A stretch of DNA of 64,000 nt from an uncultured Phycisphaerales bacterium (lineage in GTDB: Bacteria; Planctomycetota; Phycisphaerae; Tepidisphaerales; Tepidisphaeraceae): contig CAVWVQ010000003.1 of the NCBI GenBank assembly GCA_963758525.1, positions 4,480,001 to 4,544,000 on the forward strand, read 5' to 3'. Shown in pieces: positions 14,581 through 36,585 of this stretch. Every line of letters starts with the position of its first letter. Position 1 is the stretch's first letter. The position numbers and the translations under genes were made by a program. The notes beneath the pieces are model-generated. The model was not told the origin of the DNA. It was given only the letters and a program-made list of their open reading frames with translations, and searched no databases.

Positions 14581-16395
14581 TTATCGGTCGCTGGCTCTTC
14601 GGCGTGCGCCGGTGTCAATTGACGCCGGGCCTGCGGTCATGCCGCTGACTACGGCGATGACTGGATCGAAAGGGTCCGGCGATCGCTCCATGCAGGTCTG
14701 CGCCAGTTGCAGCAATCTCCGCGAGGGAAGATCGGCCGTTCTGTCCGACGCGCCGGAGCTGACCAGCGGAGCAAGAACCTGACATGCCTCCCGCCATTGT
14801 TTCGATTCATACAGTGCCAACGCCTTCTCGTATGCCTCACGGCGGGCGAGCCATTCGGGCTGCGCGCGCTCCCCATGAAATTCGTAGAGCATCATTGGCA
14901 CGCTCACGTCGGCGAGACGCACCTGGCCGAGCCGGCGGGTGTAGAGTGACGCCGGCAACTGCTGGCACGTGGAGGCGGTGATCAGCAGCGGGATGCCAAG
15001 CTTCTTGGTGGCGTCCTGCACCCGGCTGGCAGCGTTGACGGTGTGCCCGTGCGGGCCGTATTTGAACTTGCGCGTGCTGCCGGTATTGCCGACCTGCGCC
15101 GAACCGGAATTGATGCCGATGCCCAAAATAAGGGGACCGGTTTCGGCGGCCCAACGCTCGTTGAGTCCGGGAAGTTCGCCGATCATGCTGAGCGCGGCCT
15201 GGCAGGCGCAGAGCGCGTGGTCGCTTTGCTTCGCGGGCGCGTTCCACATCGCCATGATCCCGTCGCCGGAGTAGTCGACGATGACGCCGCCGTAGGCGAC
15301 GATCTGGTTGGACAGCGCCTCCATCATGTCGCGAATCAGCCGGCAGGTTTTCTCCGCGCCGAGGCGCTGCGAGAGGGCGGTGAAGCCGCGAAGGTCGCTG
15401 AAGAGCAGCGTGACCTCTTCGGAACGCGCTTCGAGCAGATTGGGATCACGCTCCAGTTCGCTCACCAGTTCCGGGGAGAAGAACTGCTCGAACTGAACCC
15501 GCGTGCGGACGGCGGCGGCCCGGGCCAGATTCGCGCCGACGGCGGCGGAAAGAAGCTGAACCAGTTGCGCCTCCATTGGGTCGATCCCTCGCGCCGCCAG
15601 GCCGGCGCCGCGCGACCCGTACAGAACGCCGATAATTTCGTCGTGGAGTCCGAAGACGGGCGACGCCACCGCCGCCTGCACGTCCTCCAGGCTCGCGGCC
15701 TGCTGCCGGAGTTGCTTCAGGTCCTCGAAGAATGTCTGCCGTCGCGTCGTGACATGCTTGACCAGCGTGCGGCTGTAGCGGAATTCAACGTCGTCGGCTT
15801 TTCTCGCCGTGCCGATCATGGCCCACTCATCATTTTTCAAAAGCAGTACCAATCCAAGGTCCATACCGATCAGATCGACGAGCGCGCGGGCGACGCGCGT
15901 ATAGAACTCAGAAGACCCGGCCGGCATGCGATCCAGCTCGATGACCGTGTGCATCCACTCGGCCAGCCGATCGGAAGCGGGGACGTGAAGCGTGCGGGGG
16001 ATGGGGACAAATTCCTGCGTTTCCTGAAGATGCGTCGTCGAGGCAACGGCTGAGTCGACAGGCGCATCCGCCGGCTCGATGATAAGTTTCACCTGGCCGA
16101 TTGACAGCTCAGCCGGCAGCGTCAACTCGCGCGATTGGCCCGCGCAAGGGCCCCGGATGCCACGAGACCGACGGGCATGCGCTGACTCAGATTCTCCGCT
16201 CTTAGAAGGCCGCCGCCCAGTTCCAGAATTCGCAGGTGATCCTGCGAAACCGTGGCATCGTCGATCCGGCACCGTCTGGCCTCGCGTGCGCCCTGCGCCC
16301 GAACTCCAGCGGGCCGCTCGGATGCTTGAACTCCTGACGCGGAGCACTGCCGGTGATCACCTGAACTCGCAATGCCACGACTGCTTGCCTTTCAT
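14581..16395 (-). CDS. Class III adenylate/guanylate cyclase with N-terminal FHA-like and GAF domains; frameshifts in the 5' ~250 bp
   Basis: LLFSDLRGFT, VDYSGDGIMAMW, GIGINSG and HGHTVNAASRVQ; GAF-like ASPVFGLHDEIIGVLY; FHA-like PLEFGR and DDATVSQDHL in other frames. Start is approximate. Confidence 0.8.
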
Positions 16396-16804: not shown

Positions 16805-19800
16805 GTGAAACACGTAAATCGGCCGTTTCTTCGATATCTGTTCCCGGCCCGGGCCGCAAAGCTGGCGATCCTCTGGGCGGCCGGGGTGGCCGCGGCCGCA
16901 TTGTCGCTGGTGATGCCGTTCGTGATCGGACGGCTCACCCATCTTTGCAGCGTTGGCGGGAAGGGGAATGCGCCGCATGTGGACATGGGCGTCGTCACCA
17001 AATGGATCCTGATCCTGTTCGGTTCGCAACTGGCGTTTGCAGGGGTCAACTACTGGAGAAAATGGATTGAGGGCCGCCTGCAGGAGGAGGTGGCGCGGCA
17101 TCTCATGCTCGACACATTCGCGCGGGTCGTCCGCTTTTCGGCCGATTTTTTTCGCGACCGGGAAGTGGAGAAAATCAATTCGCGCGTGCTGGATGACGCC
17201 AACGCGGTGGGACGTGTGCTGGTGAACGCGGCGGTCACCGCGCCGGTGGCGGTGATGAGCATGGTCATCTTCGGCGCGGTGATGATGTCGCACAATTTGT
17301 TCCTCGGCGCCTGCATGATCCCGCTCGCGCTGCTCAGCCGCTATTACACGTTTTTTGATCCAACGGTGCAGCGGATCAGCAAACGGACGCGTGAGGTGTG
17401 GGACACCATCCGCGCACAGGGGAGCGAAGTGGTGACCCTGACGCCGGAATTGCGGGGACATTACGCGTTTGACTATGGCCTGGCAGGTCTGAAGCGATCC
17501 TTCGATCGCTATCGAGTCGTGCTGCAGGACATGGCGCAAATTCAGGCGTTGTTCCAGGCAATCACGCCGCTGGTGGGTGTCGTGCAGTACGGCACGCTCT
17601 TCTGGCTGGGGGCGGCACTCTGCTCCGACCATTCGGCGCTCCTGAAGATCGCGCGGCCGATGGACTGGGGCGGCGTGATCGAATTCATGCTGATCGTGCA
17701 GCTCTTTCAGAAGCCGTCAATGGAACTGGGGCTGTTTCTCATCGAATGGCGGATGACGCGGGAGAATGTGCGGCGAGTGGCCGAATATTTCGAGCAGCCG
17801 CTGGTGTTCGATCGCGCCAAGGCGAGCCTGCCGTTGCCGGACAGATCTGACGTGGCGTATGACGACGTGAGCGTCTGGACCGGCTCCGGGTCGAAGATTC
17901 TCAACGGTGTGAAGCTGACGATTGCTGCAGGCGAGCACGTCGCGTTTTGCGGTCCGGCAGGATGCGGCAAGACGACCGCGATGCAACTGGTGGTGCGCGG
18001 GGTTGAACCCTCGTCGGGACGGCTGCGGCTCGCGGGGCAGGGCATCGACGAATACGACATTCTGCGGATCGCTCAACGTGTTGCGTTTGTCGCGCAGAAG
18101 CCGCTGCTGATGGATGCGAGTCTTCGCAACAACATCCTGCTGGGATTGCGTCGGGAGACAGAAGGGTGCTTGCATGATGACGACGGGCCGCTTGATGTCT
18201 CGCGTTTGTCGGGCGCGAAGGACGCGGCCGGCCTCGATGCTGAGCTGCTGCGGATCATCCGGCTGGTAGCCCTGGAAGACGACGTGCTTCGCAAATGCCT
18301 GGATAACCCCGCGCCGGCCGGCACTCATGCCGACGCACTTGGGTCGCACGGAAGCGCGCTGAAAAAAGCGGTCGCCGAAGCGCTGGGGAACGCCGGCAGC
18401 GCCGAGATGATCGCATTCGACGTCGACGGGTGGATTCCCGGAACGCTGCGCGACAATCTGCTGGGGCCCGGGGCCGCTGCGGACGACGACTGGCGGGCGA
18501 TGAACGTGCTGGCCGGGGATGATTTTCTCGAAGAGCTCATTCACCTCGGAACCCGGCGGCTTCGCGCGGAACGGTTGCTGGCCGTCAAAGTGGCTCAGCA
18601 GGCGCCGGCGCTGCTGCAGTTTCTTCCGACCTATCTCGACGCCGGCGGACGCGTGGAAATGGAGGATCTTTCGTCCGCGAAAGTGGGCGAACTCTCGCTG
18701 TCGGTGCGGCAGACGTTGCTGGGCGTCGCGCTAGGCGTCGATGCGGAAGTCGCGCTCTCGCACCTCCGCGACGAGACGGCGTCGGCTCCATTCCGAGACC
18801 GGGCGATCGCTGCGCAAAACGCTCATCGCCGGTGAGGCAGTCTTCCGGCAGCGGTGGGATGACTTGATGTCGCGCCGTGACGTGGAAGGGCTGCCGGTTC
18901 GGGAAAATCTGCTGGGAGGTCGTGTGAACGCGCGCGTGCTCGGCGCGGCGGAGCGAGTCGATGCGGTGCTGCGCCGGGTTCTGGAACAATCGGGGCTGTT
19001 GCCGGCTGCGCTGCTGATGGGACTCGAATTTCGCGTCGGAGAAGGAGGCAAGTACCTGTCCGGCGGCCAACGGCAGAAGGTGAGCATCGCGCGGGCCATC
19101 GTCAAGAATCCGAGCATCCTCCTGATGGACGAGGCAACCGCGAGCCTCGATGAGTCGTCGCAGGCCAGGGTGGTGGAAATGATCCGCGACGGATTCAAGG
19201 GCAAAACCGTCGTTTCGATCTCGCACCGTCTCTCGACCATCCGCGACTTCGACAAGGTGGTGGTGCTGGACCGCGGTGAAATCGCCCAGTCTGGAACGTA
19301 TCAGGATCTTGCGGTGGCCGACGGCGTCTTCCGTGAGCTGGTCAATCAGGAGCGCGGAATTGCGTCCCAGCCGGGGGCGAAGCAGACGACGGCAGCGCCC
19401 TCGCTGCAAGATCTGCAGCGGCAACTGGCGCTCAGCGACGTCTTCGGCTCGATGAACGAGGAGCAATTGACGTTTCTCGCCCGCGCCGCGCGCGTCGTGG
19501 ACTGCCGGCCCGGCGAGGTGCTGTTCCGCCGGGGGGACAGCGGCGCGGAGCTCTATCTCATTCTGGAAGGAAGCATGGCTTTCTCCACGGATCGTCCGGC
19601 GGCCTCCGAGGGTGAAGCAGCGTCAGACGCTCATCCGCCGGAACCTCCAACTGTCGTTGCCACCTACGGCCCGGGAAGGGTCTTCGGGGAGTTGGCGCTG
19701 TTCGGCCACGGCTTAAGAACATTGACGGCCCGCGCCGGCGCCGCGACCCGCCTGATGGCCCTGGGCCGGGAAGATCTCATTCGCCTGATGACCGCGGATC

Positions 19801-19916
19801 ATCACATCGCCATCGGGCTGCTCAGCGCGATCTCAAGGCGCATGATTGAGGCTGACGAACGCCGATTTGCGGTTCCGCAGTCAAGCTCGGCGCGGCCCGC
19901 GCCGTCATCGCAGTAG
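16805..19916 (+). CDS. ABC exporter (TMD plus NBD with a large insertion) fused to a C-terminal cyclic-nucleotide-binding domain; frameshift at ~18790
   Basis: TM region; Walker A GPAGCGKT; then LSGGQRQKV, ILLMDE and SHRL about 300 aa later; cNMP motifs GEVLFRRGDSG and FGELAL...RTLTARA. Confidence 0.85.
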
Positions 19917-20056: not shown

Positions 20057-20082
20057 TGTAAGGGTTAGACAACCCCTCCGTA
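20057..20082 (+). promoter_or_regulatory. Putative ECF-sigma promoter TGTAAGG-N15-CGTA (copy 1)
   Basis: Same motif and spacing at 20939, 36300 and 36461; CGT-type -10 is typical of ECF promoters. Confidence 0.7.
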
Positions 20083-20083
20083 A

Positions 20084-20140
20084 CACCGGGTGAGAAGCAG
20101 ATCGCTTCTCACGCTGAAGGAAACAGCGAACAGTTTCCAA
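20084..20140 (+). promoter_or_regulatory. Conserved structured 5' leader with two hairpins (copy 1)
   Basis: CACCGG GTGAGAAGC-AGATC-GCTTCTCAC ... GGAAAC-AGCGAACA-GTTTCC; homologues at 20966 and 36488. Confidence 0.65.
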
Positions 20141-20166
20141 AAGACACGGTGCCAGGGAGCGAAATC

Positions 20167-20439
20167 ATGTTTACCAGCCTGCACAATCGAATCACGAAAA
20201 TTCTGGTCGTCGCCATCGGACCGGCCTGCCTCGGCCTGCTGCTGATGAGCCACAGGTTTGCAACAGTGGACGCGCAAGTCGACAGCTTCCAGGACAGCGG
20301 ATCGGCCAACAGCGTGGCCGCTTCCGAAAGCGCCGCCAACGATGACGGCCCGGGACTTGGCGGCGGGTATGCCTCGATCGATCCCGGCCCCATCGCTCTC
20401 GATGGTCCCGGCGGCAGCACCCCGTATCTCATCTTTTAA
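20167..20439 (+). CDS. Small secreted precursor-like peptide 1 (90 aa) with DDGPGLGGGY and DGPGG cores
   Basis: RBS GGGAG; signal-like N-terminus MFTSLHNRITKILVVAIGPACLGLLL; homologous to 21067..21459; own promoter and terminator. Confidence 0.8.
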   Translation: MFTSLHNRITKILVVAIGPACLGLLLMSHRFATVDAQVDSFQDSGSANSVAASESAANDDGPGLGGGYASIDPGPIALDGPGGSTPYLIF

Positions 20440-20494
20440 GTGGGTGCCGAGAAGCGGATGACCCAGCAACTCAACAATCCAACAACGTCGCCAT

Positions 20495-20528
20495 ACACAC
20501 CACTCCGCTCTGGCGGAGTGGTGTGTTT
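20495..20528 (+). terminator. Hairpin terminator after peptide 1
   Basis: ACACACCACTCCGC-TCTG-GCGGAGTGGTGTGT then TT; core shared with the hairpin after peptide 2. Confidence 0.65.
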
Positions 20529-20647
20529 GCGCATCACCAACAATCGGCGATACGAATCGGCGGGTCCAACATCCAAACACGCGGTCGCTTATTTGACACG
20601 CTGGACCATGTCCTGGGTGCGGGAGACTTTCGGCAGGCTCTCTTTTC

Positions 20648-20778
20648 CCCTCCCCTGGTACTCCGAGGGAGGGTTAGGGTGGGGGCCCGGCTGTGTAAGG
20701 GCGCGGAGAGCCGATGGAGCGCTTGCGTACAACACAGCCCCCACCCCAGCCCTCCCCCGGAGTACCAGGGGAGGGGGA
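20648..20778. repeat. Inverted pair of CCCTC/GGAGTACC REP-like repeats
   Basis: CCCTCCCCTGGTACTCCGAGGGAGGG...CCCTCCCCCGGAGTACCAGGGGAGGG. Confidence 0.75.
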
Positions 20779-20938
20779 AAGACCAGCGTTGCTGAAAGTG
20801 TCACGCACCCTTGTCTTCCCCACGTCCTTTCGAGCAGAAAGAGAGATTGCCGCGACGAAACTCAAAAAATGCAAAAAAACACCCTTGATCCCGAAGCGGC
20901 AAGCCGGGGAACCCGCTCCGGAATTTCTTGAATTGATC

Positions 20939-21020
20939 TGTAAGGCTTGGTGATCGGCCGCGTAGCACCGGGTGAGAAGCAGATCGCTTCCGACGCCCAC
21001 GGAAACGGCGAAAAGTTTCC
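20939..21020 (+). promoter_or_regulatory. ECF-type promoter TGTAAGG-N15-CGTA plus conserved two-hairpin leader (copy 2)
   Basis: TGTAAGG CTTGGTGATCGGCCG CGTA GCACCGGGTGAGAAGCAGATCGCTTCC...GGAAACGGCGAAAAGTTTCC. Confidence 0.7.
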
Positions 21021-21066
21021 AGCAATCGAACGGGTTCTTCAAACCCGAAATACCAAGGAGCCTCTC

Positions 21067-21459
21067 ATGTTTTCCATCCTGAGCAATCGCATCCATCGCG
21101 TTTTGGCCGCTGCCGTCGTACCGGCCGGCCTCGGACTGGTTCTGGTGGGCAACGGTTTCGCGCAGGCCCATTCGCAACTCGACGCTTTCCACGCTGACGG
21201 CCCCGGCGGTTCGGGCTACTGCCTGACAGCACATCTCGCCGCCGACGACGATGGCCCCGGCCTCGGCGGCGGGTATGCGTCGCTCGTTCGCAAGCCCCCG
21301 GTTGCCCGTGATGACGATGGCCCGGGTCTGGGCGGCGGATATGCCGCTTCCCTCCGTTTGAGCCATGAGATCGTGGCGGACAGCGGTCCCGGCAACGACG
21401 GTTACGGCAAGCCTATGTCCGACGGTCCCGGGAGCAACGTGCCATACGCTCTTGCTTGA
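21067..21459 (+). CDS. Small secreted multi-core precursor-like peptide 2 (130 aa) with five (D/S)GPG...Y repeats
   Basis: RBS AAGGAG; signal peptide ending AQA; cores DGPGGSGY, DDDGPGLGGGY x2, DSGPGNDGY and DGPGSNVPY. Confidence 0.85.
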   Translation: MFSILSNRIHRVLAAAVVPAGLGLVLVGNGFAQAHSQLDAFHADGPGGSGYCLTAHLAADDDGPGLGGGYASLVRKPPVARDDDGPGLGGGYAASLRLSHEIVADSGPGNDGYGKPMSDGPGSNVPYALA

Positions 21460-21492: not shown

Positions 21493-21522
21493 AGACAACT
21501 CCGCCCTCGGCGGAGTTGTCTT
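21493..21522 (+). terminator. Hairpin terminator after peptide 2
   Basis: AGACAACTCCGCC-CTC-GGCGGAGTTGTCT. Confidence 0.65.
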
Positions 21523-21675: not shown

Positions 21676-24600
21676 TTAGTTCGGATTGCCGAGATAAATG
21701 AACGGGGCCCAGAAGAACGGCTCGGGATATTCTTGGCGGAGCTGCTTTCGCGCGGCGGTGAACGCGGCAAGCTTCGATGGACAACCGGGAGACTGCAGAT
21801 TGCGATAGAAATCCTCCATCAGCCTGGCGGTGCTCTCATCCTGCACTTCCCACTCACTGGCGACGACCGCCGGACAACCGGCGTACCAGAAGCCCCAGGG
21901 AAGGCCGAAGACGCCTTCATCGGTGACGGCGTTGCCTTTGCCGCTATCAATTCCCTGAGAATCGCAGGCGCTGAGCACCACCAGCTCCGTGCCGGAAAGC
22001 TTGCCGCCCCAATGATCAAACAAATCCTCCAGCGTCAGCAGCCCGGTATCCTGTGCGGTGACCACCCGCGGCTGGGTCAGGATAATGCTGCTGTAAATCG
22101 CGTCCTGTCCGGACCTGGCCAGGCCGTGCGTGGCCAGGTGAAGATACCGCGTCCCGACTGCGGCCTCCGCCAGTCGCTTTGCGGTGGCGTCTTCGCCCAA
22201 GAGGACCAGGACCGAATCGTCGTGCCCGGGGGAATATCCGCGGCCCGTGAGCTTCTCGTAGATTCCCATGATTTCTTTGCGCGTTCCGGGAAGCGGCGAG
22301 AGCGCGCCATAGCCGCCGAGGCCGGCATTTCTGGTCTGGCCTGACGGCGCTGCAGACCGACCCAGGTCTCTGGCTTCCCGCTGCAGCACCGGGTCGCCCA
22401 ACAGAACGGCCTGGTGCGTGTAATGCTTCGGCGCGCTGGAGGCCGGTGGCGCGCAGAGCTTGAGCAGCGCGGTGGCGGAAGCGCCGTAACAAATCGCCGG
22501 CCCCTGATCGAGCCAGTAACGGCAATCTTTTGCATCGGGGCTGGCGGGGTTCTGGACGATCAAGGTTTCCAGCGGCAATCCGTTCATCCCCGCATCGGGA
22601 ACGACATAAATCAACTGGTCGTCCTGGATCTGTTGCCAGATCGACGAAGGCATGAGCCGGGACCAGAGTTCGTACCCCTTGCGGGTCATGTCGTCAGCCG
22701 GGGCTTTGGTTGCACCGTCTTCGACGAGCTTTGCCCCGCGCGTGAATGTCTGGTTGTGCGCAACCACCGACTGCTGATAGTCCACGATGCGCCGCTCCAG
22801 GGCCGTGCCGGACAACACGGTTTTGCCATCCGGCTCGGTCAGCAGCGCGCCGGTGATGGGCTGGCCGGCGGGAGGGATCAGGATGACCATGATGTCGCGA
22901 TCGGTAATCGAATACATCAGCAGATGCTGGCGCGGCTTCAGAAGCGCCTGCATCTGCAACGCCGATGCAGGCTCTGCAAACGTCGTTGCGCCGGCGACAT
23001 TGAACAATCGGCGATGCGCGGCGGCGTAGCGCGCGCAGGCGTCATCCAGCTTCGGCTGCAGCAGATCGATCTGAGAATTGCCATCGTCATTGTTCAAGGA
23101 GCGCGCGAAATTGATCTGCGAGGTGAGCTCGCGAACCTGTTCATCGGCATCGGATGTCGCCTTACCGGCCTGCTCGAGCTGCGCCAGCAGTTGCGTATCG
23201 TGGGCTTCCCGCGCCTGCGCTTCGAGCGGCGCCAGCAGATCTCCGCCGTTGCGGCGTTCGGCGCGCTCCAGGACATCCAGAAGACTTCGAGCCCGTCCGC
23301 GATCGAGGTACTCCGCAGCCCGGTCCGGATGCCCCAGCATCAGCTCCACCCGCACGATCGCCACGGGTGCGTCGCAGTCGTCCTGCGCATCGATGAACTT
23401 CATCCGATCCTGGTCGTCGCCACCCAGAATCGCCCGGGCCCGCTCGAAAGCGCCGATCGATTTCTCGTACGCAGCCTCGGCGTCTGCGAGTTGGTTCAGC
23501 GCCAGCAGGCAATCTCCCAGATTCGAGCAGTAGCGATAGAGATCGGGATCGCTCAGACGCTCGGCAAGTGCCACAGCCTTCTGGAACATCGGCAGCGCCT
23601 CCTGCTTTTTTCCCAGCGCGGAGAGACACGAGCCGAGTTTTGCCATGTTCCACGCGACAATCGGATGGTCGCGGCCCTTATAGATGCGCTCCTGCATTTG
23701 GAGCGCTTCGCGGCAGAAGGGAAGCGCCTCGCCAGGATGGTCCAGCGACATGAGACATCCGCCAAGCAGAGCGAGATTGATCGCAATATCCGGACGATCC
23801 TGATTCCCGCTCAACCGGCGGCGCATCGCCAATGCCGCCTGATACATCGGCAGCGCCTCGGCCGATCGCCCCAGATTATCCAGCGAGAGCGCCACGTTGC
23901 TCGTGGCAGTCGCAACATCCGGATGGTCCTGGTCCTTGTAGAGGCGCTTCCACATTTCCAGCGCCGACTGCTGGGTCGACAGCGCGTCGGCGAAGCGGCC
24001 GAGAGACGTGAAACAGGAAGCCTCGTTGTTGAGGGACTCGGCGATGTCGGGGTGATCCATGCCGTTGTACATCCGCCGTCTCATTTCCAGTGCCGCTTGA
24101 TGATCGGGCAACGCCTCGGCGCAGCGTCCCAAATCGTCGAGGCAACTGGCGATGTTCGCCAGAGCGGTCGCCACGTCCGGGGAGTCCTGACCCTTGTGGA
24201 TGCGGTCGAGCATATCGTGCGACAACTGGAAGTCGGCCAGCGCTTCCTGATGGCGGCCCAGAAATGCCAGGCAGGTCGCCAGATCGTTCAACGATGAGGC
24301 AACATCGGTATCGTCCTTCCCCTGGTAGATCCGCCGGCGCATCTCCAGCGCCGCCTGAAACATCGGCAGCGCTTCGTTGCCGCGTCCCAGCGACTCCATG
24401 CACCCAGCGACATTGTCCATCACCACGGCGAGGTCGGCGCTGTCCTGGTTCTTGAAAATCCGGCGAGTCGATTCCAGTGCAGACTGATATACAACCAGCG
24501 CATCGGAGTCGCGTCCCAGCGCGCTGAGACACTTGGCGAGGTTGTTCATGCTCGCCACTACATCGATCTGATCGTCCTGCTGATAGATGCGCCGGCGCAT

Positions 24601-25697
24601 CTCCAGCGTCGCCTGGAAGACCTTGAGCGCTTCGTCGTAGCGCCCAGCGCGAAGAGGCAGAACGCAACGCTATTCTGGGTCGTGGCCACATCGGCGTCGT
24701 CCGCCCCTTTGTTCAGTCGCTGCTTCATCTGTAGTGCGGCCTGGAGGTTGGTCAGCGCATCCGCCGGCCGGCCCAGATCCTGCAGGCACCCGCCCAGGTT
24801 GCAGTAGGCCTCGGCGACGTCCGCGTCGTCCTGCCCCTTGTGCATCCGCCCGCGCATTTCCAAAGCCTTCTGGTAGAGCGGCAAGGCGTCCTCGTTACGG
24901 TCGAGGGCCGCCAGGCGCCGGGCGACGCTGGTCATGCTCCAGGCGACGTCTGGCGAATCCTCACCCTTTGCCAGGCGCTGGCGCATCTCCAGCGCGGCTT
25001 GGTCGAGCGGTAATGCCTCGTCGTTGCGGCCCAGATTCGCCAGGCAATTGGCCAGATTTGCCATCGCGGTCGCCAGATCCTCGTCGTCCTCGTTCTTGTG
25101 AAGGCGCAGGCAGATCTCGGTTGCCCGTTTGAACTTCGGAAGGGCGTCCGCATCGCGACCAAGTTGTGCCAGCGCAAATCCCTCGCCCGTGAGGCAGGCG
25201 GCGGCTTCGGTTGTTTCACCGGTTCCCTGTGCTTTCAGATAGATCTCGGATGCCGACTGATATTTCGCCAGGGCATCTTCCGGTTTGCCGGCAGACCGGT
25301 CGTCCAACGCGGCTGAGAGAAGTTCGTTGGCATGCGCAAGCGGGTCCGAAGCCGGAGCCGAGGCTGGCGCGGTGGTCGATTGATCTGCTAAAGCGATCGA
25401 CGGATTCCATGCCGCGACGCAGATGCACGCGATCGTGCAAAGGAGTCCGCTTACGACTGACCTGCGGAGGCGATTCGCGGAACCGCCTCGGGTCCCTTCT
25501 CCCGGTACTCCCGGAGAGGGATAGGGTGAGGGTGTTTTCGAGCACCGGGGACGCTCAGAATTCCAAATCACCCTCACCCCAACCCTCTCCCGGGGTACCG
25601 GGAGAGGGGGCTGGAAGGCGACTCGCTGCGATGGGGCGTGATACCTGCACGACCTCGCAAGGTCAGCAACTGCCGCAATGTCTTTCCAGCGAATCAT
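21676..25697 (-). CDS. TPR-CHAT caspase-like protease C (signal peptide, many kinesin-light-chain-type TPRs, CHAT domain, no PDZ); frameshift at ~24640; start uncertain
   Basis: Repeats such as DHPDIAESLNN...QAALEMRRR; catalytic HLATHG and LSACDS; C-terminal PFFWAPFIYLG. Confidence 0.85.
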
Positions 25698-25781
25698 GAT
25701 TATCAGTAACGCGGAATTCATCCCGTTGTTTTTATGCCGCAACATTTCGCCACGTCGCGCGGGATGAATCCCGCGCCACGC

Positions 25782-26526
25782 GGCGATCTCAATTCGGATC
25801 ACCCAGATAGATGAACGGCGCCCAGAAAAACGGCTCGGGGTAATCCAGCTTCAACTGCTTGCGGGCGGCGGTGAACGCCGAGAGCTTGTTGGTTCCCGGC
25901 GCGGCCCGCAGATCGGCGTAAAACTTTTGCATCAACTCGGCAGTGCTCGCATCCTGCACTTCCCACAAACTGGCGACCACCGCGGGACTGCCGGCGTACA
26001 TGAATCCCCAGGGCAATCCGAAGACGCCTTCGCCGCCGCGGGCGTTGGTTCCCTGGGCGTCGAGCCCCTGCGAATCGCAGGCGCTGAGCACCACGAGTTC
26101 GGTTCCGTCCAACCGGCCCCACCAGTGATCGAACAAATCCTGCAGCGTGAGCAGGCCGGTATCCTGCGGCGTGATGACCAGCGGTTGGCTCAAGACGACG
26201 CTGCTGTAGATCGCGTTGGCGCCCGGCTCCACCAGGCCGTGGGTGGCCAGGTGGAGGTAACGCGTTCCCTTTGCAGCCTCGGCGAGGCGCTGACCGGTGG
26301 CGTCTTCGCCCAGGAGCACCATCACCGGATCGTCGGCGTGCTGCGCGTAGGCCTTGCCGGTGAGCACCTGGTAAATCCCCTGCACTTCCCGGCGGGTGCC
26401 GGGAAGGGGAGTCAGCGCGCCGTAGCGCGTGAGGCTCGCGTCGCGCAGCGCGACCGAACTCGGCTCTGGTTTTTGCGGAGACGGCGTCAGTTGCGCCGCC
26501 AACTCCGGAGTCATGTCTTTCAGCTC
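25782..26526. repeat. ~745-bp near-identical direct repeat (3' end of CHAT-B), partner at 29772-30516
   Basis: Offset 3990 bp; roughly a dozen visible substitutions, nearly all synonymous. Confidence 0.9.
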
Positions 26527-29500
26527 CACGCCCGGCGCTGTGTCCAGCGAGAGTTCGCGCTCGACCATCTGTCCATCGAGCCAGAACTTGAGCCTGGGAG
26601 TTTGACTGAGCTTTCCGTGAAAGCGCAGCAGTTCGAGTTTATCCACTGCGCTGTCGAACGAATCCTTGGAGACCACATTCACCGGGCCATACGCGACGAC
26701 AATTGCGCCGATCCGCAGGCCGATCGAGGCGGCGGTCGATCCGGGCTGCACGCTGGTGACCATCGCGCCCGATGATGGCGCGGGCACGCGCTGCTGATCG
26801 GCCGGATTGCGCTGCAACACGGGATCGCCCAGCAGCACCGCCTCGCGGGCGTAGGTTTTCTGGCCGCGATCCGGCTCCTGACGACGAAGCTCCAGCAGCG
26901 CCGCCGCTGACGGTCCGTAGCAAAGAAGCGGGCCGGCGTCGAGCCAGTAGGTATTGTCTTTGGCGCTGGAAGCGTGCATAGCGGAAGTTTGCGGCCTTTG
27001 GACGACCAGCATTTCTATCGGCAGGCCGCTCATTGCCGAGTCCGGAACCACGTAAACAATCTGGTCGTCCTTGATCTGGTTCCAGACTTGCTCGGGCATC
27101 AACTCGCGGAAGAGTTCATATCCCTCGGCTGGGATGTCGGATTGGGGGCGAGTTGCAGGCTCGGTCTGCGCGATCCTGAGGCCGCGCACCGAATCCAGAC
27201 CATGCTGCACCACGGCGCGGCGGTAGTTGCCGATCAACCCACCAATCCGGCTGCCCGATAGCGGCGTCCTCCCATCTGATTGGACCAGGGACATACCAAT
27301 GATCGGCTGACCGGAAGGGGGAACGACCAGGAGGACCGCGTCATAACGTGTAATCGAATACATCAGAAGATGCTGATGCGGCTGCAGCAGAGATTGAATC
27401 TGCACCGAAGTGGTTGCCTCGGTGAACGTCGTCCGACCGGCAAGGTTGAATTTACGGCGATGGGCGTCGGCGTATTGCTGGCATGCCAGGTTCAACTGCG
27501 GCTGGAGCTGTTTGATTTGCGCGAGTCCTTCGTCACTGTTGAGCGATCGCGCGTGATTGATCTGCGAAGTCAACTGCCGAACCTGGTCGTCGGCAACATT
27601 CAAGGCGGTTCTGGCTTCGGCGATGCGCTGCAATTCGCCAGTATCGTTGGCGAGCCTGGCTTTCTTCTCCAGAGGATCGAGCAGATCGCCGTTTGTGAGC
27701 CGCTCTCCCCGTTCGAGGATATCGAGCAGGCTCTTGGCGCGTCCGCGATCCAGGTATTCCGCCGCGGAGTCCGCGTGCCCCAATGCGAGCTGCGCAGGAC
27801 CATCCCGCTGAACGGGTCTATGTCGCGATTGGCGCTCATGAAACCCATGCGGTCCTGATCGTCGCCCCCCAGCGTCGTTCTGGCTTGTTCCAAGGCGTCG
27901 ATCGATTCCTCGTACGCCTTGGCGGCGCCCGCGAAATCGTGCGAGTAGAAGAGCATATCTCCCAGAACGCAGCAGTCGCGGAACAGATCAGGGCTCCCGA
28001 GTCGCTCGGCCATCTGAACGCAGGCGCGGGACAGCGGAATTGCCTCCTTCGTGCGCCGCAGGATCGCCAGCTCATACGCGACGTCGTTCATGCTCGAGAC
28101 AATTTCGGGATGGTCCTGATCGCCATAGATGCGACGCCGCATTTCCAGCGCCGCCTGATGAAACGGCAGCGCGTCTGCGAAGCGGCCGAGATCACACAGA
28201 CAACTTCCAACGGAATTGAAGCTGTCAGCCAACTCCGGGTGATTCTGGCCTTTGTAGATGCGCCCGCGCATCTGAAACGCGGCCAGATGCATCGGCAGCG
28301 CCTGTGCCGAACGGCCCAGGCTGTCGAGGCACGCCGCGACGCTGTCCATGCTCTCGGCGACATCGGAGGAATCCTTCCCTTCCGCAAGCCGCTGCCGCAT
28401 CCGCAGGGCGGCCTGGAGCATCGGCAGCGATTCAGCCTCGCGTCCCAGGGCGCCGATGCACTGCGCGACGTTGCTCATGTCCGTCGCCAGATCCCGATGA
28501 TCTTTGCCGTTCTGCAGGCGCTGCTCCATTTGCATCGCGGCTTCGTACATCGGAAGCGCTTCGGCGCTGCGACCCAGGTTATCCAGGCAGGAGGCCAGGT
28601 CATTGAGGCTTGCGGCGATATCGAACGCGTCACGCCCTCCGAAAGTCCGCCGCCTCATGTCCAGAACGGCGCGGAACATCGGCAGCGCCTCGGCGCTGCG
28701 CCCAGATCGTCAAGACAGCCGGCAACGTCCTCCTCGGTCTGCGCCACATCCCAAAAATCCACGCCTTTGTGAAGGCGTCTGCGCATTTCAAGCTCCGCCT
28801 GATACACAGGCAGAGCCTCAGCGCTGCGGCCCAGATTCTTCAAGCAGGTGGCAACATCGTCCTGGCTCTGCGCCAGATCGAATTGGTCGCGACCGCCACA
28901 AAGACGGCGTTTCATTTCAAACGCGTCCTGGAACGGCTTGAGCGCCTCGTCATATCGCTCCAGCGCGGTCAGACACTTTCCAAGCGTCTGGAATTCGTTG
29001 GCGATCGAAGCGTCATCCTTTCCCTTGAGAATGCGCTGCTGCATCGCCACGCCGTCCTGGCAATACTGCAAAGCTTCCTCGTCGCGGTTCAGACTGTGGA
29101 GGCACCAGCCGAAGTTGCTCATGGCAAGTCCGAACTCCAGGCGGTCCTGCTTTTGGTAGAGCCGCTGGCACATCTCCAATGCCGCCGCGAATCTTGGCAG
29201 CGACTCATCGAGCCGGTTCAATCGCGCGAGGCACCATGCCTCGCCGGTCAGACAGCGGGACACGTCAGGGTTGTCCTGCTTGCCATAGACCTTCTGATAG
29301 AGAGCGAGCGCTGACTGATCCTCATTGAACGCGCTATCGAACTTGCCCATCGTCCACGCCGCGTTGGCCGATGCCCAATGGGCGCGGGCCTGCGCGAGTG
29401 CTGCGTCGCGGTCGGTTGGGGCGGGCTGGGTTGATGAAGCGGAGGTTCCCTCATCTGCTGATGCAATCGCCGGCAGCGGCAACTGGATGCCGATGCAGGC

Positions 29501-29728
29501 GATCATGCAAAGGAGCACGCTTGCGAGAAATTGTTGAACTCTGTTTAGCCGCGCCGCGCAACGAAGCGTGTCCAGCGGCGCAGTCTGACGGGCGCCGTTC
29601 GGAGCCAAGCCCTCCCCCGGAGTACCAGTGGACGGAGAAAGAGTTGTCGGGGCCGTAGTAGTTACCAGCGCCCGAAAGATCGGGCACGCATGCGGCGTAA
29701 TTCCGTGCTTGAATGACGTAATCTTCAT
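25789..29728 (-). CDS. TPR-CHAT caspase-like protease B with PDZ-like insertion; frameshifts at ~28700 and ~27795; start uncertain
   Basis: ORFs 28655..29782, 27600..28679 and 25789..27783. PDZ-like GAMVTSVQPGSTAASIGLRIGAIVVAY; HLATHG and LSACDS. Confidence 0.85.
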
Positions 29729-29778
29729 CCAATGCTCATGGAACGAATGGTTCCCAATTCGCCAGCGCGTTGGCGATC

Positions 29779-32700
29779 TCAATTCGGATCACCCAGATAG
29801 ATGAACGGCGCCCAGAAAAACGGCTCGGGGTAATCCAGCTTCAACTGCTTGCGGGCGGCGGTGAACGCCGAGAGCTTGTTGGTTCCCGGCGCTGCCCGCA
29901 GATCGGCGTAAAACTTTTGCATCAGCTCGGCAGTGCTCGCATCCTGCACTTCCCACAAACTGGCGACCACCGCGGGGCTGCCGGCGTACATGAATCCCCA
30001 GGGCAATCCGAAGACGCCTTCGCCGCCGCGGGCGTTGGTTCCCTGGGCGTCGAGCCCCTGCGAATCGCAGGCGCTGAGCACCACGAGCTCGGTTCCATCC
30101 AACCGGCCCCACCAGTGATCGAACAAATCCTGCAGCGTGAGCAGGCCGGTATCCTGCGGAGTGATGACCAGCGGCTGACTCAAGACGACGCTGCTGTAGA
30201 TCGCGTTGGCGCCCGGCTCCACCAGGCCGTGGGTGGCCAGGTGGAGGTAACGCGTTCCCTTTGCAGCCTCGGCGAGGCGCTGGCCGGTGGCGTCTTCGCC
30301 CAGGAGCACCATCACCGGATCGTCGGCGTGCTGCGCGTAGGCCTTGCCGGTGAGCACCTGGTAAATCCCCTGCACTTCCCGGCGGGTGCCGGGAAGGGGA
30401 GTCAGCGCGCCGTAGCGCGTGAGGCTCGCATCGCGCAGCGCGACCGAACTCGGCTCTGGTTTTTGCGGAGACGGCGTCAGTTGCGCCGCCAACTCCGGAC
30501 TCATGTCCTTCAGCTCGACTCCCGGGCTCGACTCAATCGGCAGATCACGCTCCAGCATCTGCCCCTCGAGCCAGAACTTCAGCTTTGGAGTTTGGTCGAG
30601 CTTTCCGTGAAAATGAAGCAGCGCGAGCTTGTCAACTGCCGTATCGAACTGGTCCTTCGAGCCAACTTCGATCGACCCGTAGCCCACGATCACTGCGCCG
30701 CGCGGAGTCCGATTCCCTCCCCGGTCGAACCCGCCTGCACGCGCGTTACCAGCGCGCCGGACTGCGGCGCCGGCAGACGCGGTCGGGCATCATCATTCCG
30801 CTGCAGGACAGGATCGCCGAGCAACACCGCTTCGTGCGCGTAGGTTCTTCCCTCCCGATTGGTTTCCTGTCTGCGCAGCTCGAGCAATGCGGCCGCGGAC
30901 GGGCCGTAGCAGAGCAGCGGGCCGTGGTCGAGCCAGTAAACGTTATCCCTGGCGTCCGCGGTTCTCGGCTTTTGCGTGATCAGCATCTCCAGCGGCAGCC
31001 CGCTCATCGACGCGTCGGGCACCACGTACACCAGGGAGTCGCGCTGAATCTCCCGCCAGACGGCGTCGGGCAAGAGCTGGCGGAACAGTTGATACCCTTC
31101 ATCGGAGGTGTCTTGCGTCGGATGCGTTGTCGCTTCGGTCTCGGCCAATCGCACTCCGCGAATCAGATTCATTCCGCGCTGCACGACCGTCCTGCGATAA
31201 CTTTGAATCAGTCGCTGAAGCGATTCTCCCGAAAGGCGCGTCTTGCCGTCGGCTTCCGTCAGATACATTCCGCTGATCGTCCCTCCCGGCGGCGGAATCA
31301 GCAGCACGACGGCGCTTCGAGGGGTGATCGAATACATCAGCAGATGCTGCCCCGGCTGCACGAGAGATTGAATCTGAAGCGACGTCGTTGCCTCGGTAAA
31401 TGTCGTCCTTCCGGCGAGGTTGAATTCCTGCCGGTGAGCGTTGGCATACTCCTGCCAGGCGGTGTTCAGTTTCGGCTGCAACTCTCTGATATCTTGCAGC
31501 CCCTGGGCGTTATTCATCGCGCGGGCATGGTTAATGCGCGAGGTGAGCTGCCGCACCTGATCCTCCGCCGCCGCCAGTGCCGTTCGATCGCCGAGGATCA
31601 GCTTCAGTTGCTGCTTGTCGTTCGTAAGCCTGGCCTTCTTCTCCAGGGGATCGAGCAGATCGCCATCGGAAAGGCGTTCCCCGCGCTCGAGAATATCGAG
31701 CAGGCTCTTGGCTCGTCCGCGATCGAGATACTCCGCGGCGGTGTCCGCGTGCCCCAGTTCGAGTTGCGCCCGGACCATGCCGCCAAACGGATCGCGTGAC
31801 TGCATGGTGGAACTCATGAATCCCATCCGGTCCTGATCGTCGCCGCCCATGGTCGCGCGGAACTGCTCGAGCGAATCGATCGATTCCCCGAATTCTTTGG
31901 CCGCTTCGGCTGCGTGACCGGTCATCAGGAGGATGACTCCCAGATCGTTGCAGTAGTTGAATAAGTCAGGACTTCTGAGCCGCTCGGCCATCGCATTCGC
32001 ACCGCGGCCCATCGCCAGGGCTTCCTCGCCGCGACTCACCCGCATCAGTTCCACCGCCAGTTGATCCATGCACGCTGCCGTTGCCGGATGGTCGCGGCCC
32101 TTCCAGATGCGCTGATCCATTTCCAGCGCATCGTGGAACAGCGGAAGCGCTTCGGCGTGACGATTCAAAGCGCTGAGGCATTCCGCAGCCTGAAGCAGCC
32201 CGCCTGCGGTAGCGGGATTGTCCTGGTCATGATACATACGCCGGCTCATCGCCAGTGCCTCCTGATACATCCCAAGCGCCTCCAAAGCGCGGTCCAGACT
32301 TTGGAGGCAATAGGCGACGTTCTGCAGGTTCATCGCAATAAACGGATGATCCTGATTTTTGAAGATCCTCCGATGCATTTGCAAAGCCGCCTGGAGATAT
32401 CGCAACGCCTCGGCGCGACGGCCCAGTGGGTGCAGGCACGCGGCGAGGTTATTCATGTTGTTGGCGACGTCCAGGTTGTCGTAGCCCTTGTGAATTCGCT
32501 GGTTCATCGCGACGGCCATCTGCAACATCGGCAGCGCCTGTGCAAGCCGGCCGAGTTTCGTGAATTCGAACCCAACCGTGTTGAGGCTGTTTGCAATCGC
32601 AGGATTGTCATGTGCGCCGTACAGACGGACCCTCATCTCCAGCGCAGCCATGTAATAGGGGAGCGCCTGCATGCTGCGTCCCGCTCCGTCGAGATAAATG

Positions 32701-33263
32701 CCCAGCGTATTCTCAATAACGGCGACGTTGGGATCGTCACGATTGTTGGAGAGCCTTCGCTCGATGCTCAAGGCGGTCCGCCCGGCGACCAACGCGTCGT
32801 CGCAACGACCCAGGGCAAACAGAGCTTTCGAAAGATTCATGAACATCAGGCCCATCTCCAAGCTGTCCTTGCCTTTTGACAGTCGCTGCTCCATCTCGCA
32901 AGCCGCCTGCAGGTTCGGCAGCGCCTCCGGGTCGCGGCCGGCAGCATGCAGATCGCATCCGTACGTGTGCAGTGCGTTGGCCAGCACCTCCTGATCCTGA
33001 TCTTGGTACACCCGCCGATACAGCACGATCGCCGCCTTGAACGTCGGAAGCGCCAGCTCCATCCGATTGGTGGAGGCAAAAGTCAACGCTTGCCGGTAGA
33101 GGAAATTGGCGGCGGAAAGGTTCCATCGATCGCGAGCTTGCGCAGACTTCGCGTCGTCAGTCGTCGCCGCAGCCGCTTGGGAGGGAATCGTTGTGGGAAG
33201 CGTGGCGGGAGACGCTTGGGCGGGAAGTCCAAATAGAAGGAACGCAATGACTGCCCCGAGCAT
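29779..33263 (-). CDS. TPR-CHAT caspase-like protease A with PDZ-like insertion; frameshift at ~30695 (alternative start 33476)
   Basis: Signal-like MLGAVIAFLLFGLPAQA; TPRs; GALVTRVQAGSTGEGIGLR PDZ-like segment; HLATHG and LSACDS. Confidence 0.85.
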
Positions 33264-33310
33264 GAAGCGGCGTTCTTTCCTCTGCCCCTTGTACTGGTGC
33301 CAGAGAAGAA

Positions 33311-33360
33311 GAAATGGCCAAGGCCCAATGGCCAACAAAATCCCAAGCCCCAATGACCAA
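33311..33360. repeat. CCAA(T/G)G heptamer-type repeat, duplicated at 36181-36229
   Basis: AAATGGCCAAGGCCCAATGGCCAACAAAATCCCAAGCCCCAATGACCAA in both places, upstream of CHAT-A and of the ECF gene. Confidence 0.75.
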
Positions 33361-33514
33361 TGCGAGACCCGCGCGCGGTCCCTCCGTCCCCTCCCCACAA
33401 CTCCCCCGCTGGGTCGAAGCACTCGCCGGCAGTGACCGATCGATGCTGATTCGGCTTGGTTGCTGAGCAGATCCATTGCGATGCTCCATGCGCAGCACGT
33501 TTCGCTTGACGTGT

Positions 33515-35249
33515 TTACTGCTGCGGATCCTGATGCGCGACTGCAATGCCGGTGAAAAAATAACCGTGATCTTTCAGCTTCTTGCTCAGGTCATCCAATG
33601 GGACCGAAACCCCCGAGCAACTGTCGGCGGTTTCGGCGCCGGGTCGCGCGATCGTTCGCCGCCGTCAAGGAAACGCGCGTGGGCACCGGCCGCGTCGACC
33701 AGCACCGCGCCGGTTGGCGGCAGTTCCGCCAGGGAACGGCTCGCGAAGAAGCTCTGCAACTGCGACTTGAGCGCATCGACGTTTTGCGGGTTGTCCAAAT
33801 CGCGGCCCGCAACCATCAGCAGAAACTCCGTCCCGGCCGGACCAGTAAGTGCGGTCGTGCGCGCCTCGCCAGGGCTGATGACATGATCGAACTGGTCGGC
33901 GCCATGCACCTGCGAGTCGGGCACGCGGAAAACCTGTCCCGCGGAACCGACCCAGAAAACCACCGCCGGCGTATCGCGCGGCACAACCCCTTCGATCTTC
34001 AGTTTCTCCCCGGTGACCAGCGGCAGATGGCCGTCAAGGCTGCTCAGCCCATCTGGCGTGATGAGTAACTGCCCGGTCGCGGGAATCGGAGCCGGCTTGG
34101 GCCACAACCACGCGGTCGCGCTCACGACCGCGACCACGGCCGCCGCCGGGATCGCGCGCCGCAGCAGTCGGCGCCGCGCCGCCGCGTGATTTACCGACTC
34201 CAGGGCCTCGGCCATCTCCCTGGCGCCGGCGAATCGATCCTGCGGCATTGCCGCCATCGCTTTAAGGGCGATCTGCTTCAATCGCGGGGAGACTTCCGCC
34301 TTCTCCAGGATGCCGCGATCAAACTGGCAACTTGCAGCACGCGCCAGCAGCTCGTCCCGCGCCGCCCCGGCAAATGGAGGTGTCCCCGTAATCAGGAAAT
34401 AAAGGACCGCGCCAAGGGCAAAGACGTCGCTGAGGCCCGTGATTGCCGTGAACTCAGATCGGGCCTGCTCGGGAGACATGTACTGGATCGTGCCGCCCAG
34501 GGGCTGGCGCTGGCCGTCGGTCCAGGCGCCGTTCAGCCGGGCCATTCCGAAGTCGATCAGCTTCGGCTCTCCGTGTTCATCGATCACGATGTTCTGCGGC
34601 TTCACATCCTGGTGCACGATGCCGAACCGATGCGCCGCTTCCAGCGCCCGCGCCACCTTTGCAGTCAAAGCGGCGATCTCCGGCGAGGTGAGACGAATGC
34701 GATCGCGGACGTACTGATCCACGCCCGCCCCCGCACGTACTCCATGACCAGAAACGGTCGGCGTTCAAAAAAGTCCAGATCGTAGATCCGCCCGATGTTT
34801 GCATGCTTCAACTGGACCAGGATGCGTCCCTCGCCGATCAAACGATCGTTCTTGGCAAAATCCCCGTCAGCCGTTGTTCGTGAAGAGAGTTTCAGCACGA
34901 CTTGCTCGTCGAGCGTGGGATGGACGGCGCGGTAGACGCTCGCCTGGCCGCCGCTGCCCAGCGCGCCGATGACGAGATATTTGCCGATCTTCTCGGGAGT
35001 CGAAGAGGGAGGCGTCGCCGCCGGTGAATCTGAAGGGACCTGCGTGATCACTGGAGTTTCGGTTGGCAGGACGTGCCCGGGCTCGGCGGGTATGAATGCT
35101 TTCTGCAGTCCCCGCACTTCCAGCCGCAGCCCGCTGATTTTGCGGATGCAGCGCCCGCATTCGAGCAGATGTGATTCCAATTCAGCCGACGGCTCGTCGC
35201 CGGTGGCGACCGCCAGCAATTCCTCTTCGCTTGGACACACCGTGATCAT
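33515..35249 (-). CDS. Membrane Ser/Thr protein kinase with N-terminal ZAS-like HxxxCxxC motif and extracytoplasmic C-terminal domain; frameshifts at ~34725 and ~33640
   Basis: CPSEEEL...HLLECGRC; LGSGGQASVY, VVLK, HQDVKPQN, DFGMA, GTIQYMSPEQ and SDVFALG; TM AIPAAAVVAVVSATAWLW. The shifted frame ends ...LSKKLKDHGYFFTGIAVAHQDPQQ*. Confidence 0.9.
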
Positions 35250-35425: not shown

Positions 35426-36025
35426 TTATGCCAGCTCTTCGTCGTGCCGTGCACACAACTCGCGGATCTTCTCAAGTACGCGGTGCGCATTAGTATAGAC
35501 CGCGTTCACGCTCAAGCCTAATTCCTCGGCCACCTCCGGCCCGGAACGGCCGCGCAGCGTGCGTTGCTCGAAGCAGGCCCACGTCTTAGGTTCGAACGAT
35601 TCCTGACTTTTTTTCATCGCAAACTGCATGATTTGTTCGTGATGCAGTTGCTCCCACTCCCGGCTCAGTTCCTCGGTGACTGACGGAACAATCGGCCCGG
35701 TGAAGTTGCTCTCCTGCCCAAACGCCGGCGGCTGGTTTTGCCGCCGTCGCGCCCAATCGCGGATGGCGTTGATCGTGACTTCAAACAGCCAGGTTCGAAA
35801 GCGGCCCCGCTGACGATCCAAGTCGAACTTTGCCATCGCCGGGCGAAGCTTGTTCAGAAAGATGTCCTGCACCAGGTCCTCGGCGTCGTGCTCGCGCACA
35901 TCATGTTTGCGGACATACCGGATCAGCAGCGGGTGGTAGATCTCGTAGAACTCACCCCAGCTTTGTTTGTCGTTGGGGTCGTGGAGGCCTCGAAGCAGCG
36001 ACGATCTGGTCTGGTCGGCGTCCAT
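35426..36025 (-). CDS. ECF sigma-70 factor of the planctomycete kinase-associated type (199 aa)
   Basis: TRSSLL...SWGEFYEIYHPLL, DAEDLVQDIF, RGRFRTWL and region 4 EVAEELGLSVNAVY; directly upstream of an STK gene. Confidence 0.92.
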   Translation of the reverse strand: MDADQTRSSLLRGLHDPNDKQSWGEFYEIYHPLLIRYVRKHDVREHDAEDLVQDIFLNKLRPAMAKFDLDRQRGRFRTWLFEVTINAIRDWARRRQNQPPAFGQESNFTGPIVPSVTEELSREWEQLHHEQIMQFAMKKSQESFEPKTWACFEQRTLRGRSGPEVAEELGLSVNAVYTNAHRVLEKIRELCARHDEELA

Positions 36026-36299
36026 TTTCGGTGCAAGTTTATCCCGTCCTCCGGTCGGCCGTCCATCAAATTGCGATTGTCCGCAAGGCGGGGGGGCCGT
36101 GGCGCTCTCGGCGAGCGGATTTCCCCCTCCCCTGGTACTCGGGGGGAGGGCTGGCGTGGGCGGTGGGGGCAGAGACTCAGAAATGTCCAAGGCCCAATGG
36201 CCAACAAAATCCCAAGCCGCAATGACCAAGGCGAATGAACCTTGGGCCTTGGGGTTTGGTGCGTTGTTAGCCATTGAAGCCTTAAAAATTCGCCGGCTC

Positions 36300-36325: not shown

Positions 36326-36330
36326 CCACG

Positions 36331-36545: not shown

Positions 36546-36585
36546 ACACGGGTTACTACAACCCAGCATCGTGAAGGAGTCCATC

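Follow-up and report, generated by a model that had tools for sequence, protein, structure and literature searches.

In the Phr/RRNPP pheromone systems of Bacillota, a propeptide exported through Sec gives rise to a short mature peptide that is recognised by a TPR receptor, and these receptors are cytoplasmic regulators (HTH or phosphatase) which the peptide reaches via Opp in monoderms. TPRs also occur on the periplasmic side of a sigma switch in Myxococcus xanthus, where the ECF sigma factor DdvS is paired with the membrane protein DdvA, and the signal activating the periplasmic TPR-CHAT part of DdvA is called elusive in the accessible portion of its description (PMC11506125). A cassette of Haliangium ochraceum joins SAVED-CHAT, PCaspase, PCc-sigma, PCi and PCk and, as far as the available text goes, is triggered by cA3 through SAVED and tied to CRISPR/CBASS (bioRxiv 2023.06.23.546230). 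Here we analyse a window of 64,000 nucleotides (the whole stretch of DNA studied) from an uncultured Phycisphaerales bacterium, in which two small repeat peptides, predicted to be exported, lie beside genes that may form a switch of the DdvA kind.

The repeat peptides and their promoter

A preliminary description of this DNA had reported two ORFs with repeated (D)DGPG...Y motifs. Both ORFs were located on the forward strand, and all 7 of the 7 quoted motifs were found as written. These ORFs (precursors A and B) and the elements around them are as follows.

20057..20166, + strand: promoter TGTAAGG-N15-CGTA (ECF-type) and conserved two-hairpin leader of A
20167..20439, + strand: precursor A, 90 aa from ATG, signal-peptide-like N-terminus, 2 cores (DGPGLGGGY, DGPGGSTPY)
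20492..20529, + strand: terminator-like hairpin after A
20939..21066, + strand: TGTAAGG-N15-CGTA promoter and two-hairpin leader of B
21067..21459, + strand: precursor B, 130 aa, signal-peptide-like N-terminus, 5 cores
21493..21521, + strand: terminator-like hairpin after B, a 13-bp perfect inverted repeat
36300..36410, + strand: fourth promoter, running directly into a terminator, gene-less
36461..37176, + strand: third promoter and leader, then a 196-aa exported protein (36586-37176) of YbjN/CesT fold

The stretch DDGPGLGGGYA, earlier called invariant in three copies, does occur three times in ORFs A and B, and the three DGPGLGGGY copies differ pairwise at 4 of 27 nucleotides, all of these differences being synonymous. 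The pattern search that had been recommended for the repeat showed DGPG-x-GGGY to be confined to A and B in a six-frame scan of the 6.47-Mb genome (3 matches, against 0 for a reversed-pattern control). Both N-termini pass a basic-plus-hydrophobic test and are thus predicted signal peptides, the test being a crude Kyte-Doolittle heuristic. The layout had been likened to that of multi-core RiPP or pheromone precursors; the multi-core exported layout stands (2 and 5 cores behind predicted signal peptides), whereas the RiPP reading finds no enzyme to support it. Pfam was run on 47 ORFs picked out of the 187 window ORFs of at least 100 aa, and no RiPP tailoring family was found among the 47, in line with the earlier remark that no tailoring enzyme is adjacent. 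Precursors A and B themselves gave 0 Pfam matches and none to NCBIfam models, and 15 of 16 core carriers were without an NCBIfam match at E<=0.1, the remaining one having a sub-cutoff lipoprotein match. The ESM Atlas returned weak matches to unnamed clusters (top score 0.84).

Two repeats accompany the peptide genes. A REP-like hairpin with 46-nt arms (91% complementary) lies between them at 20641-20782 and has 584 blastn pieces genome-wide; an Rfam search of 19900-21700 gave nothing above the gathering score, its miRNA-like matches being this hairpin. A GGATGTACATCC-centred palindrome is present on either side of the pair, at 19965-19994 and 21570-21599, and its 70-78 blastn pieces genome-wide mark it as a dispersed repeat that is not peculiar to the cassette.

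The 85-nt stretches 5' of A and of B are 80% identical and hold the same promoter, with the N15 spacing that is typical of ECF promoters. TGTAAGG-N15-CGTA was found 4 times in the genome against 0.41 expected, all 4 within this window, while the same half-sites at 17 other spacings (8 to 25) gave 3 genome matches altogether. A matrix trained on 12 sites of other loci ranked the four window sites at the top (29.3-31.6 bits), the next one scoring 18.4. Among 7 metagenome precursor loci, 6 have the promoter ahead of the precursor and the seventh (L015) has no upstream DNA; the promoter likewise stands ahead of the precursor in 3 of 3 genome loci (L023-L025) and in genome G502. In 14 aligned leaders 93.9% of the cells in the hairpins pair; one pair alternates between A-U and G-C, in 7 of the 14, and both sides change in 2 of 12 pairs, the rows being related. 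The third and fourth promoter copies point away from the ECF gene, and the fourth is probably a deletion remnant, because a small beta-protein gene of L023 ends in a sequence that matches its 3' part. For the 196-aa protein behind the third promoter the model has a pLDDT of 66 and Foldseek gives E ~5e-4 to the YbjN/CesT fold. The exported family to which it belongs (window 36586-37176; L025, L062, L087) consists largely of lipoprotein-like members; Arg-Asp/Gly motifs precede the domain, and NPF(Q/E/K) is found at the C-terminus. Two more small exported genes stand behind TGTAAGG-N15-CGTA in related loci (L023:8805-9198 and 9470-9700; L025:3090-3490), one encoding a beta-rich protein of ~130 aa and the other a 76-aa peptide without DGPG cores.

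Homologues were collected at several levels. Of 171 candidates in a phmmer search, 19 passed E<=1e-3, a number that includes the two window proteins, and the core, whose conservation the preliminary description had left to be checked, is carried by 25 of 25 listed phmmer proteins; P0055 and P0056 (2 of 12 phmmer representatives) were dropped as they have no core. The profile search gave 53 proteins at E<=1 among 7,994 scored. One match, in G269, was set aside as a different repeat peptide: it is an unrelated multi-core precursor (L028:1238-2275) with ~14 TTxALGEEG repeats that adjoins an ATP-grasp-like ORF and resembles graspetide precursors. By taxon, one homologue is from Tepidisphaeraceae, and of three genome loci two are Tepidisphaeraceae and one Phycisphaerales. 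The protein search of 61 relatives yielded the genome's own peptides and 8 weak matches (E 0.01-0.09), and plasmids gave 0 tblastn matches. Viral contigs gave 13 single matches with no precursor among them, which were taken as chance.

In total 163 GPG-x3/4-Y cores were counted in 41 precursors of <=150 aa, leaving out P0024, P0050 and the carriers above 150 aa; these precursors are related sequences and not independent samples. Asp precedes GPG in 148 of the 163 cores, and the commonest middles are LGGG (64), GSG (22), AGGG (11) and SGGG, NGGG and GSTP (8 each). The last Tyr lies within 4 residues of the C-terminus in 32 of the 41 precursors, forming the C-terminus itself in 7, and 39 of 41 pass the signal-peptide heuristic. 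The number of cores per precursor ranges from 1 to 8, with spacers down to 2-4 residues, and one precursor of 54 aa has a single, C-terminal core. Five cores have Ala before GPG, 4 of them being first cores directly behind the signal peptide; in four related precursors, seemingly of one lineage, the first core begins at Gly right after an Ala that resembles a signal-peptidase site. Of the 9 core positions 8 are fixed while codons and spacers diverge. Beyond the core there is no conserved protease site, and the positions that flank it, before D and after Y, vary, so that a separate recognition sequence is absent. The synonymous-only change among the window copies, the conserved Asp and the ends near Tyr argue for selection on the peptide, as far as sequence comparison can tell. 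GPGLGGGY, GPGAGGGY and DGPGLGGG were absent from the literature searched, outside which most subscription journals lie, and DDGPG appeared only in unrelated papers; searches on planctomycete secreted repeat peptides and on CHAT, ECF and kinase in planctomycetes likewise found nothing there. The peptide family is thus real, conserved and undescribed in the literature searched.

The surrounding cassette and its distribution

The genes on both sides of the peptide pair are as follows.

14581..16347, - strand: adenylate/guanylate cyclase, divergent from the ABC-cNMP gene
16805..19916, + strand: ABC transporter fused to a cNMP-binding domain, one frameshift
21676..25802, - strand: TPR-CHAT protease 3, convergent on the peptides, His825/Cys879 dyad, one frameshift
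25789..29782, - strand: TPR-CHAT protease 2, PDZ insert, two frameshifts
29779..33476, - strand: TPR-CHAT protease 1, PDZ-like insert, one frameshift
33518..35249, - strand: membrane Ser/Thr kinase, N-terminal CHCC zinc anti-sigma motif, ectodomain with RSRDP, two frameshifts
35426..36028, - strand: ECF sigma factor, 200 aa

On comparison with intact orthologues, seven frameshifts are seen in five large cassette genes of this window, and the cyclase match begins at residue 64, the first 63 being missing. Breaks also affect 2 of 6 tested housekeeping genes, which makes indels in the assembly the simplest explanation, though the cassette may also be decaying in this strain. The kinase is intact in relatives, where kinase (578-584 aa) and TPR-CHAT (1264-1403 aa) are separate genes, and the intact TPR-CHATs have a signal-peptide-like start and CHAT at the end. 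The His-Cys dyad of CHAT (H825 and C879) is nearly invariant in 22 aligned rows, and for the TPRs of TPR-CHAT 3 kinesin light chain is the closest among solved structures. In the kinase, C5, H27, C31 and C34 are invariant in 6 of 6 sequences and RSRDP is present in 4 of 4 ectodomains; the ectodomain model has a pLDDT of 48, and we take this domain to resemble DUF4384, a likeness without support in Pfam. The catalytic loop of the kinase (window 33586-34722) reads HQD and not HRD in the window and in G541, G502 and G546; in eukaryotes, non-RD kinases are linked to pattern-recognition receptors. The window ECF keeps DAED in sigma region 2.2 (it reads HDAEDL).

In related loci the peptide is found in similar company. 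It adjoins ECF, kinase and TPR-CHAT in L023, and in G502 and G546 it occurs with the ABC-cNMP/cyclase pair, a subtilase and YbjN-like lipoproteins, to which G502 adds an exported caspase. The other half of the cassette (two YbjN-like lipoprotein genes, subtilase and exported caspase) is present in this genome at C3:5,008,480-5,014,822, ~0.5 Mb from the ECF part and without the TGTAAGG-N15-CGTA promoter. Neither a Cas nor a CD-NTase family came up in the Pfam scan of 47 window ORFs. A transglutaminase-like exported protein lies near the peptide in both lineages considered here (L025:15428-17227; L059:3182-6097); it matches NCBIfam anti-phage ProA partially (E 7.5e-13, far under the cutoff) and tblastn with it found nothing in this genome at E<=1e-12. 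A paralogous ABC-cNMP gene (39% identity) was located at C1:414086-417133 of this genome; its neighbourhood and that of the genome's fourth CHAT hold no similar peptide, and no ECF lies near the paralogue.

DGPG-x-GGGY is present in 5 of 141 family genomes, from three genera, and an ECF orthologue (81-83% identity) is present in the same 5, the other 136 being without a match at E<=1e-45. The earlier suggestion that the peptides are linked to the neighbouring TPR-CHAT and kinase genes is thereby put on firmer ground than the first reading could see, through the common promoter and the matching presence across genomes. Not every neighbour is constant. The ABC-cNMP gene adjoins the peptide in most loci but not in all, and as an obligate partner it was rejected, not being found with this query in G541 and G538 (93% and 87% complete), 2 of the 5 motif genomes. 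CHAT was rejected as an obligate neighbour as well, being non-adjacent in G084, where the CHATs are on other contigs, and in G223, where the nearest is ~200 kb away. These two genomes are the ones with the motif in the phylum sample (2 of 401 by pattern). In the second planctomycete family (f41) the motif occurs in 3 of 29 genomes and its ECF in the same 3 of 29; this is a different ECF, with 28% identity to the window ECF. In the f41 unit the peptide, with 1, 4 or 7 cores, is accompanied by a kinase-TM-TPR protein (G084, G223), an MFS-cNMP protein, a soluble kinase and the ECF, and all 3 of 3 peptide genes have an upstream motif, RACG-N13-GGTTCT, that is unlike the window promoter. Because the f41 units have no adjacent CHAT, ECF and kinase are the constant partners, which a TPR array and a transporter with a cNMP domain usually accompany, and since CHAT and ABC-cNMP are not constant the receptor may differ between lineages or be another protein. 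Co-occurrence among kin also fits a single cassette inherited as a block, and it leaves the peptide as a possible input or a possible output of the switch.

A proposed peptide circuit and the other readings

CHAT cleavage at Asp-Gly, raised in the preliminary description, has become doubtful on sequence grounds: the f41 peptide lies without an adjacent CHAT, and other exported cassette proteins carry sites of the form [STA]R[GD][LIV]. This motif, which was defined post hoc on these proteins and counted over related sequences, occurs 15 times in 4,195 aa of cassette YbjN-like, subtilase and caspase proteins against 1.6 expected; it occurs 0 times in the window's peptides and is not enriched in the CHAT/kinase set (2 against 3.2 expected). 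In the YbjN family the sites lie directly before the folded domain. Published CHAT specificities, in the accessible parts of the sources, are cleavage after Arg for separase and after Met or Leu for craspases (PMC11506125), and bacterial C14B enzymes cleave after basic residues (PMC6426788). Together with the Arg motif, these specificities point to Arg-directed proteolysis of other cassette proteins and not to Asp-Gly cutting.

As the precursors accompany one particular sigma factor and kinase in the genomes compared, a self-made peptide signal, of a kind not yet described, is likely, and we put at about even odds (a probability near 0.5) the reading that the cores are an autoinducing signal sensed by the TPR arrays of a DdvA-like sigma switch. 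The neighbouring ECF would transcribe the precursors from the promoter seen in the sequence, which this sigma likely reads, and the products would be exported via Sec behind their predicted signal peptides. They would then be trimmed to cores of 7-9 residues ending at or near Tyr, by a protease that is probably not CHAT cutting at Asp. The cores may bind a periplasmic TPR array, that of TPR-CHAT here and of kinase-TM-TPR in the second lineage. By analogy with DdvA/DdvS, the activated CHAT would cut Arg sites in the kinase (RSRD) and in the pro-regions of the subtilase, caspase and YbjN-like lipoproteins, whereupon the CHCC anti-sigma/kinase would let go of the ECF and more peptide would be made. 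Recognition of Tyr-containing cores by the TPRs is suggested by analogy only, kinesin-light-chain TPRs being described as binding short Tyr-plus-acid peptides in the part of the source available (PMC6214655); co-folding of residues 20-974 of TPR-CHAT 3 with residues 56-95 of precursor B gave a score of 0.01.

The precursors might instead act whole, either as a multivalent ligand or decoy, induced by the ECF, through which negative feedback would damp the cassette proteases or TPRs, or as pure regulon output. The variable flanks without a cleavage site, the shortest spacers of 2-4 residues and the spread from 1 to 8 cores would suit this, as would the small inhibitor PCi reported in a related sigma/kinase/CHAT/caspase operon (bioRxiv 2023.06.23.546230, available text). 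We nevertheless hold it to be rather unlikely, given that stops at Tyr are frequent, that a single-core version of 54 aa exists and that four related first cores start at Gly after a signal-peptidase-like Ala, as if the free peptide matters. An improbable variant is that the adjacent CHAT or the cassette caspase cuts each Asp-Gly bond and frees GPG...Y peptides. The dyad is there, Asp precedes GPG in nearly all cores (148/163), and 4 of the 5 Ala-preceded cores, seemingly of one lineage, sit just behind the signal peptide where an Asp cut is needless; against this stand the distant CHATs of G084 and G223, the Arg motif (15 against 1.6 expected in the other cassette proteins and 0 in the window's peptides, post hoc) and the published cuts at Arg, Met and Leu (PMC11506125) or, for C14B, at basic residues (PMC6426788).

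There is little probability, in our estimate, that the core is a structural low-complexity unit (a beta-turn plus glycine loop, perhaps Tyr cross-linked) of matrix or adhesive proteins under ECF control. One- and two-core proteins of 54-95 aa exist, fixed core positions amid diverging spacers and codons fit sequence-specific reading, and signalling genes are the neighbours in both lineages, although the Gly/Pro/Tyr composition and arrays of up to 11 copies in large proteins speak for it. The core may resemble silk and chorion repeats. A RiPP substrate, for example one cyclised from Asp to Tyr by an unlinked or unrecognised enzyme, is very improbable, as the scanned ORFs of the window and related loci include no RiPP enzyme family; a flexible middle between constant Asp and Tyr ends would fit it, Sec-exported and sigma-regulated RiPP precursors are known (bufferins, PMC11626156, available text), and the transglutaminase-like gene in two loci might be counted for it but for its missing tblastn match in this genome (E<=1e-12).

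Cores with diverged spacers are also found in larger proteins. They occur in the N-terminal extensions of three SecA-like proteins (P0075, P0077, P0083), in the C-terminal tail of a papain-family protease (P0062), in zinc-ribbon proteins with a BrxL-like C-terminus (P0057-P0059), one of which is from Acidobacteriota, in lipoproteins, and in an exported protein family of 360-480 aa (27 matches among 7,990 scored). No ECF, kinase or CHAT was seen among five ORFs scanned on the short contigs of the larger carriers L017 and L021. This suggests that a reader or enzyme of the core is more widespread than this cassette. The copies in larger proteins are the main argument for a structural role and are also the basis for reading DGPG-x-GGGY as a lineage-crossing signal, which distant planctomycetes would wire to different sigmas, kinases and cNMP transporters, and which unrelated bacterial proteins, including large exported acidobacterial ones, would send, mimic or jam; we offer this as a tentative and unlikely extension. 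If true, environmental diderm bacteria would have a peptide language in common, and a periplasmic TPR-CHAT sigma switch would for the first time have a named ligand; a core read across lineages would be a rare conserved peptide signal among diderms. With its 7-9-residue candidate ligand, its defined promoter and the Arg sites predicted to be cleaved, the locus can be put to the test without culturing the host, in a setting where kinase-linked planctomycete ECF groups are known mostly through gene context, according to the accessible text (PMC7826278).

Comparison with described systems

The likeness to Phr/RRNPP systems lies in a small, predicted Sec-exported propeptide beside a TPR protein; here, in contrast, the TPRs, predicted to be periplasmic, are joined to a protease or kinase, and the cores are rich in Gly and come in multiple copies. 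No HTH was seen among the top Pfam matches shown for the window and related loci. Bufferins share small Sec-exported precursors and neighbouring sigma/anti-sigma regulation with this locus, but they are Cys-based and modified by an adjacent MNIO enzyme in the available description (PMC11626156), whereas the cores here have no Cys and no MNIO enzyme was found.

Among the planctomycete kinase-associated groups (ECF59-62 and ECF217), ECF62 has a single-TM kinase at +1, as here, and differs by the WD40 sensors of its kinases in two subgroups (PMC7826278). ECF54 lies near subtilases and TPR-CHATs, as here, but is actinobacterial (PMC7826278; PMC8999054). The accessible text of these two sources mentions no peptide precursor for ECF59-62, ECF217 or ECF54. 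ECF43 (EcfP-type, phosphorylated) has no DAED in sigma region 2.2 in the text available (PMC8999054), unlike the window ECF. The Haliangium system unites CHAT, caspase, sigma and Ser/Thr kinase in one cassette, as does G502, yet the present locus has a TPR array in place of SAVED, proteases with signal-peptide-like N-termini, and repeat peptides (bioRxiv 2023.06.23.546230, available part).

The DdvS/DdvA system shares with this locus the ECF sigma, the membrane CHCC zinc anti-sigma motif and the periplasmic TPR-CHAT with its His-Cys dyad (PMC11506125), and the CHCC residues of DdvA (C6/H28/C32/C35), compared by sequence, have the same spacing as those of the kinase (C5/H27/C31/C34). Since this spacing matches and the ECF keeps DAED, the cassette can be read as a switch of the DdvA kind in which the anti-sigma/kinase and the exported TPR-CHATs are proteins of their own; in DdvA the anti-sigma part, TM helix and TPR-CHAT form one chain, whereas here the anti-sigma part is fused to a Ser/Thr kinase. 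DdvS controls CBASS/CRISPR genes, while of the four promoters here two stand before the precursors, one before a YbjN-like gene and one before a remnant. The accessible part of the DdvS/DdvA description mentions no peptide precursor (PMC11506125), whereas precursors are present at this locus, whose switch would be a new variant of the DdvA-like kind with the function proposed above.
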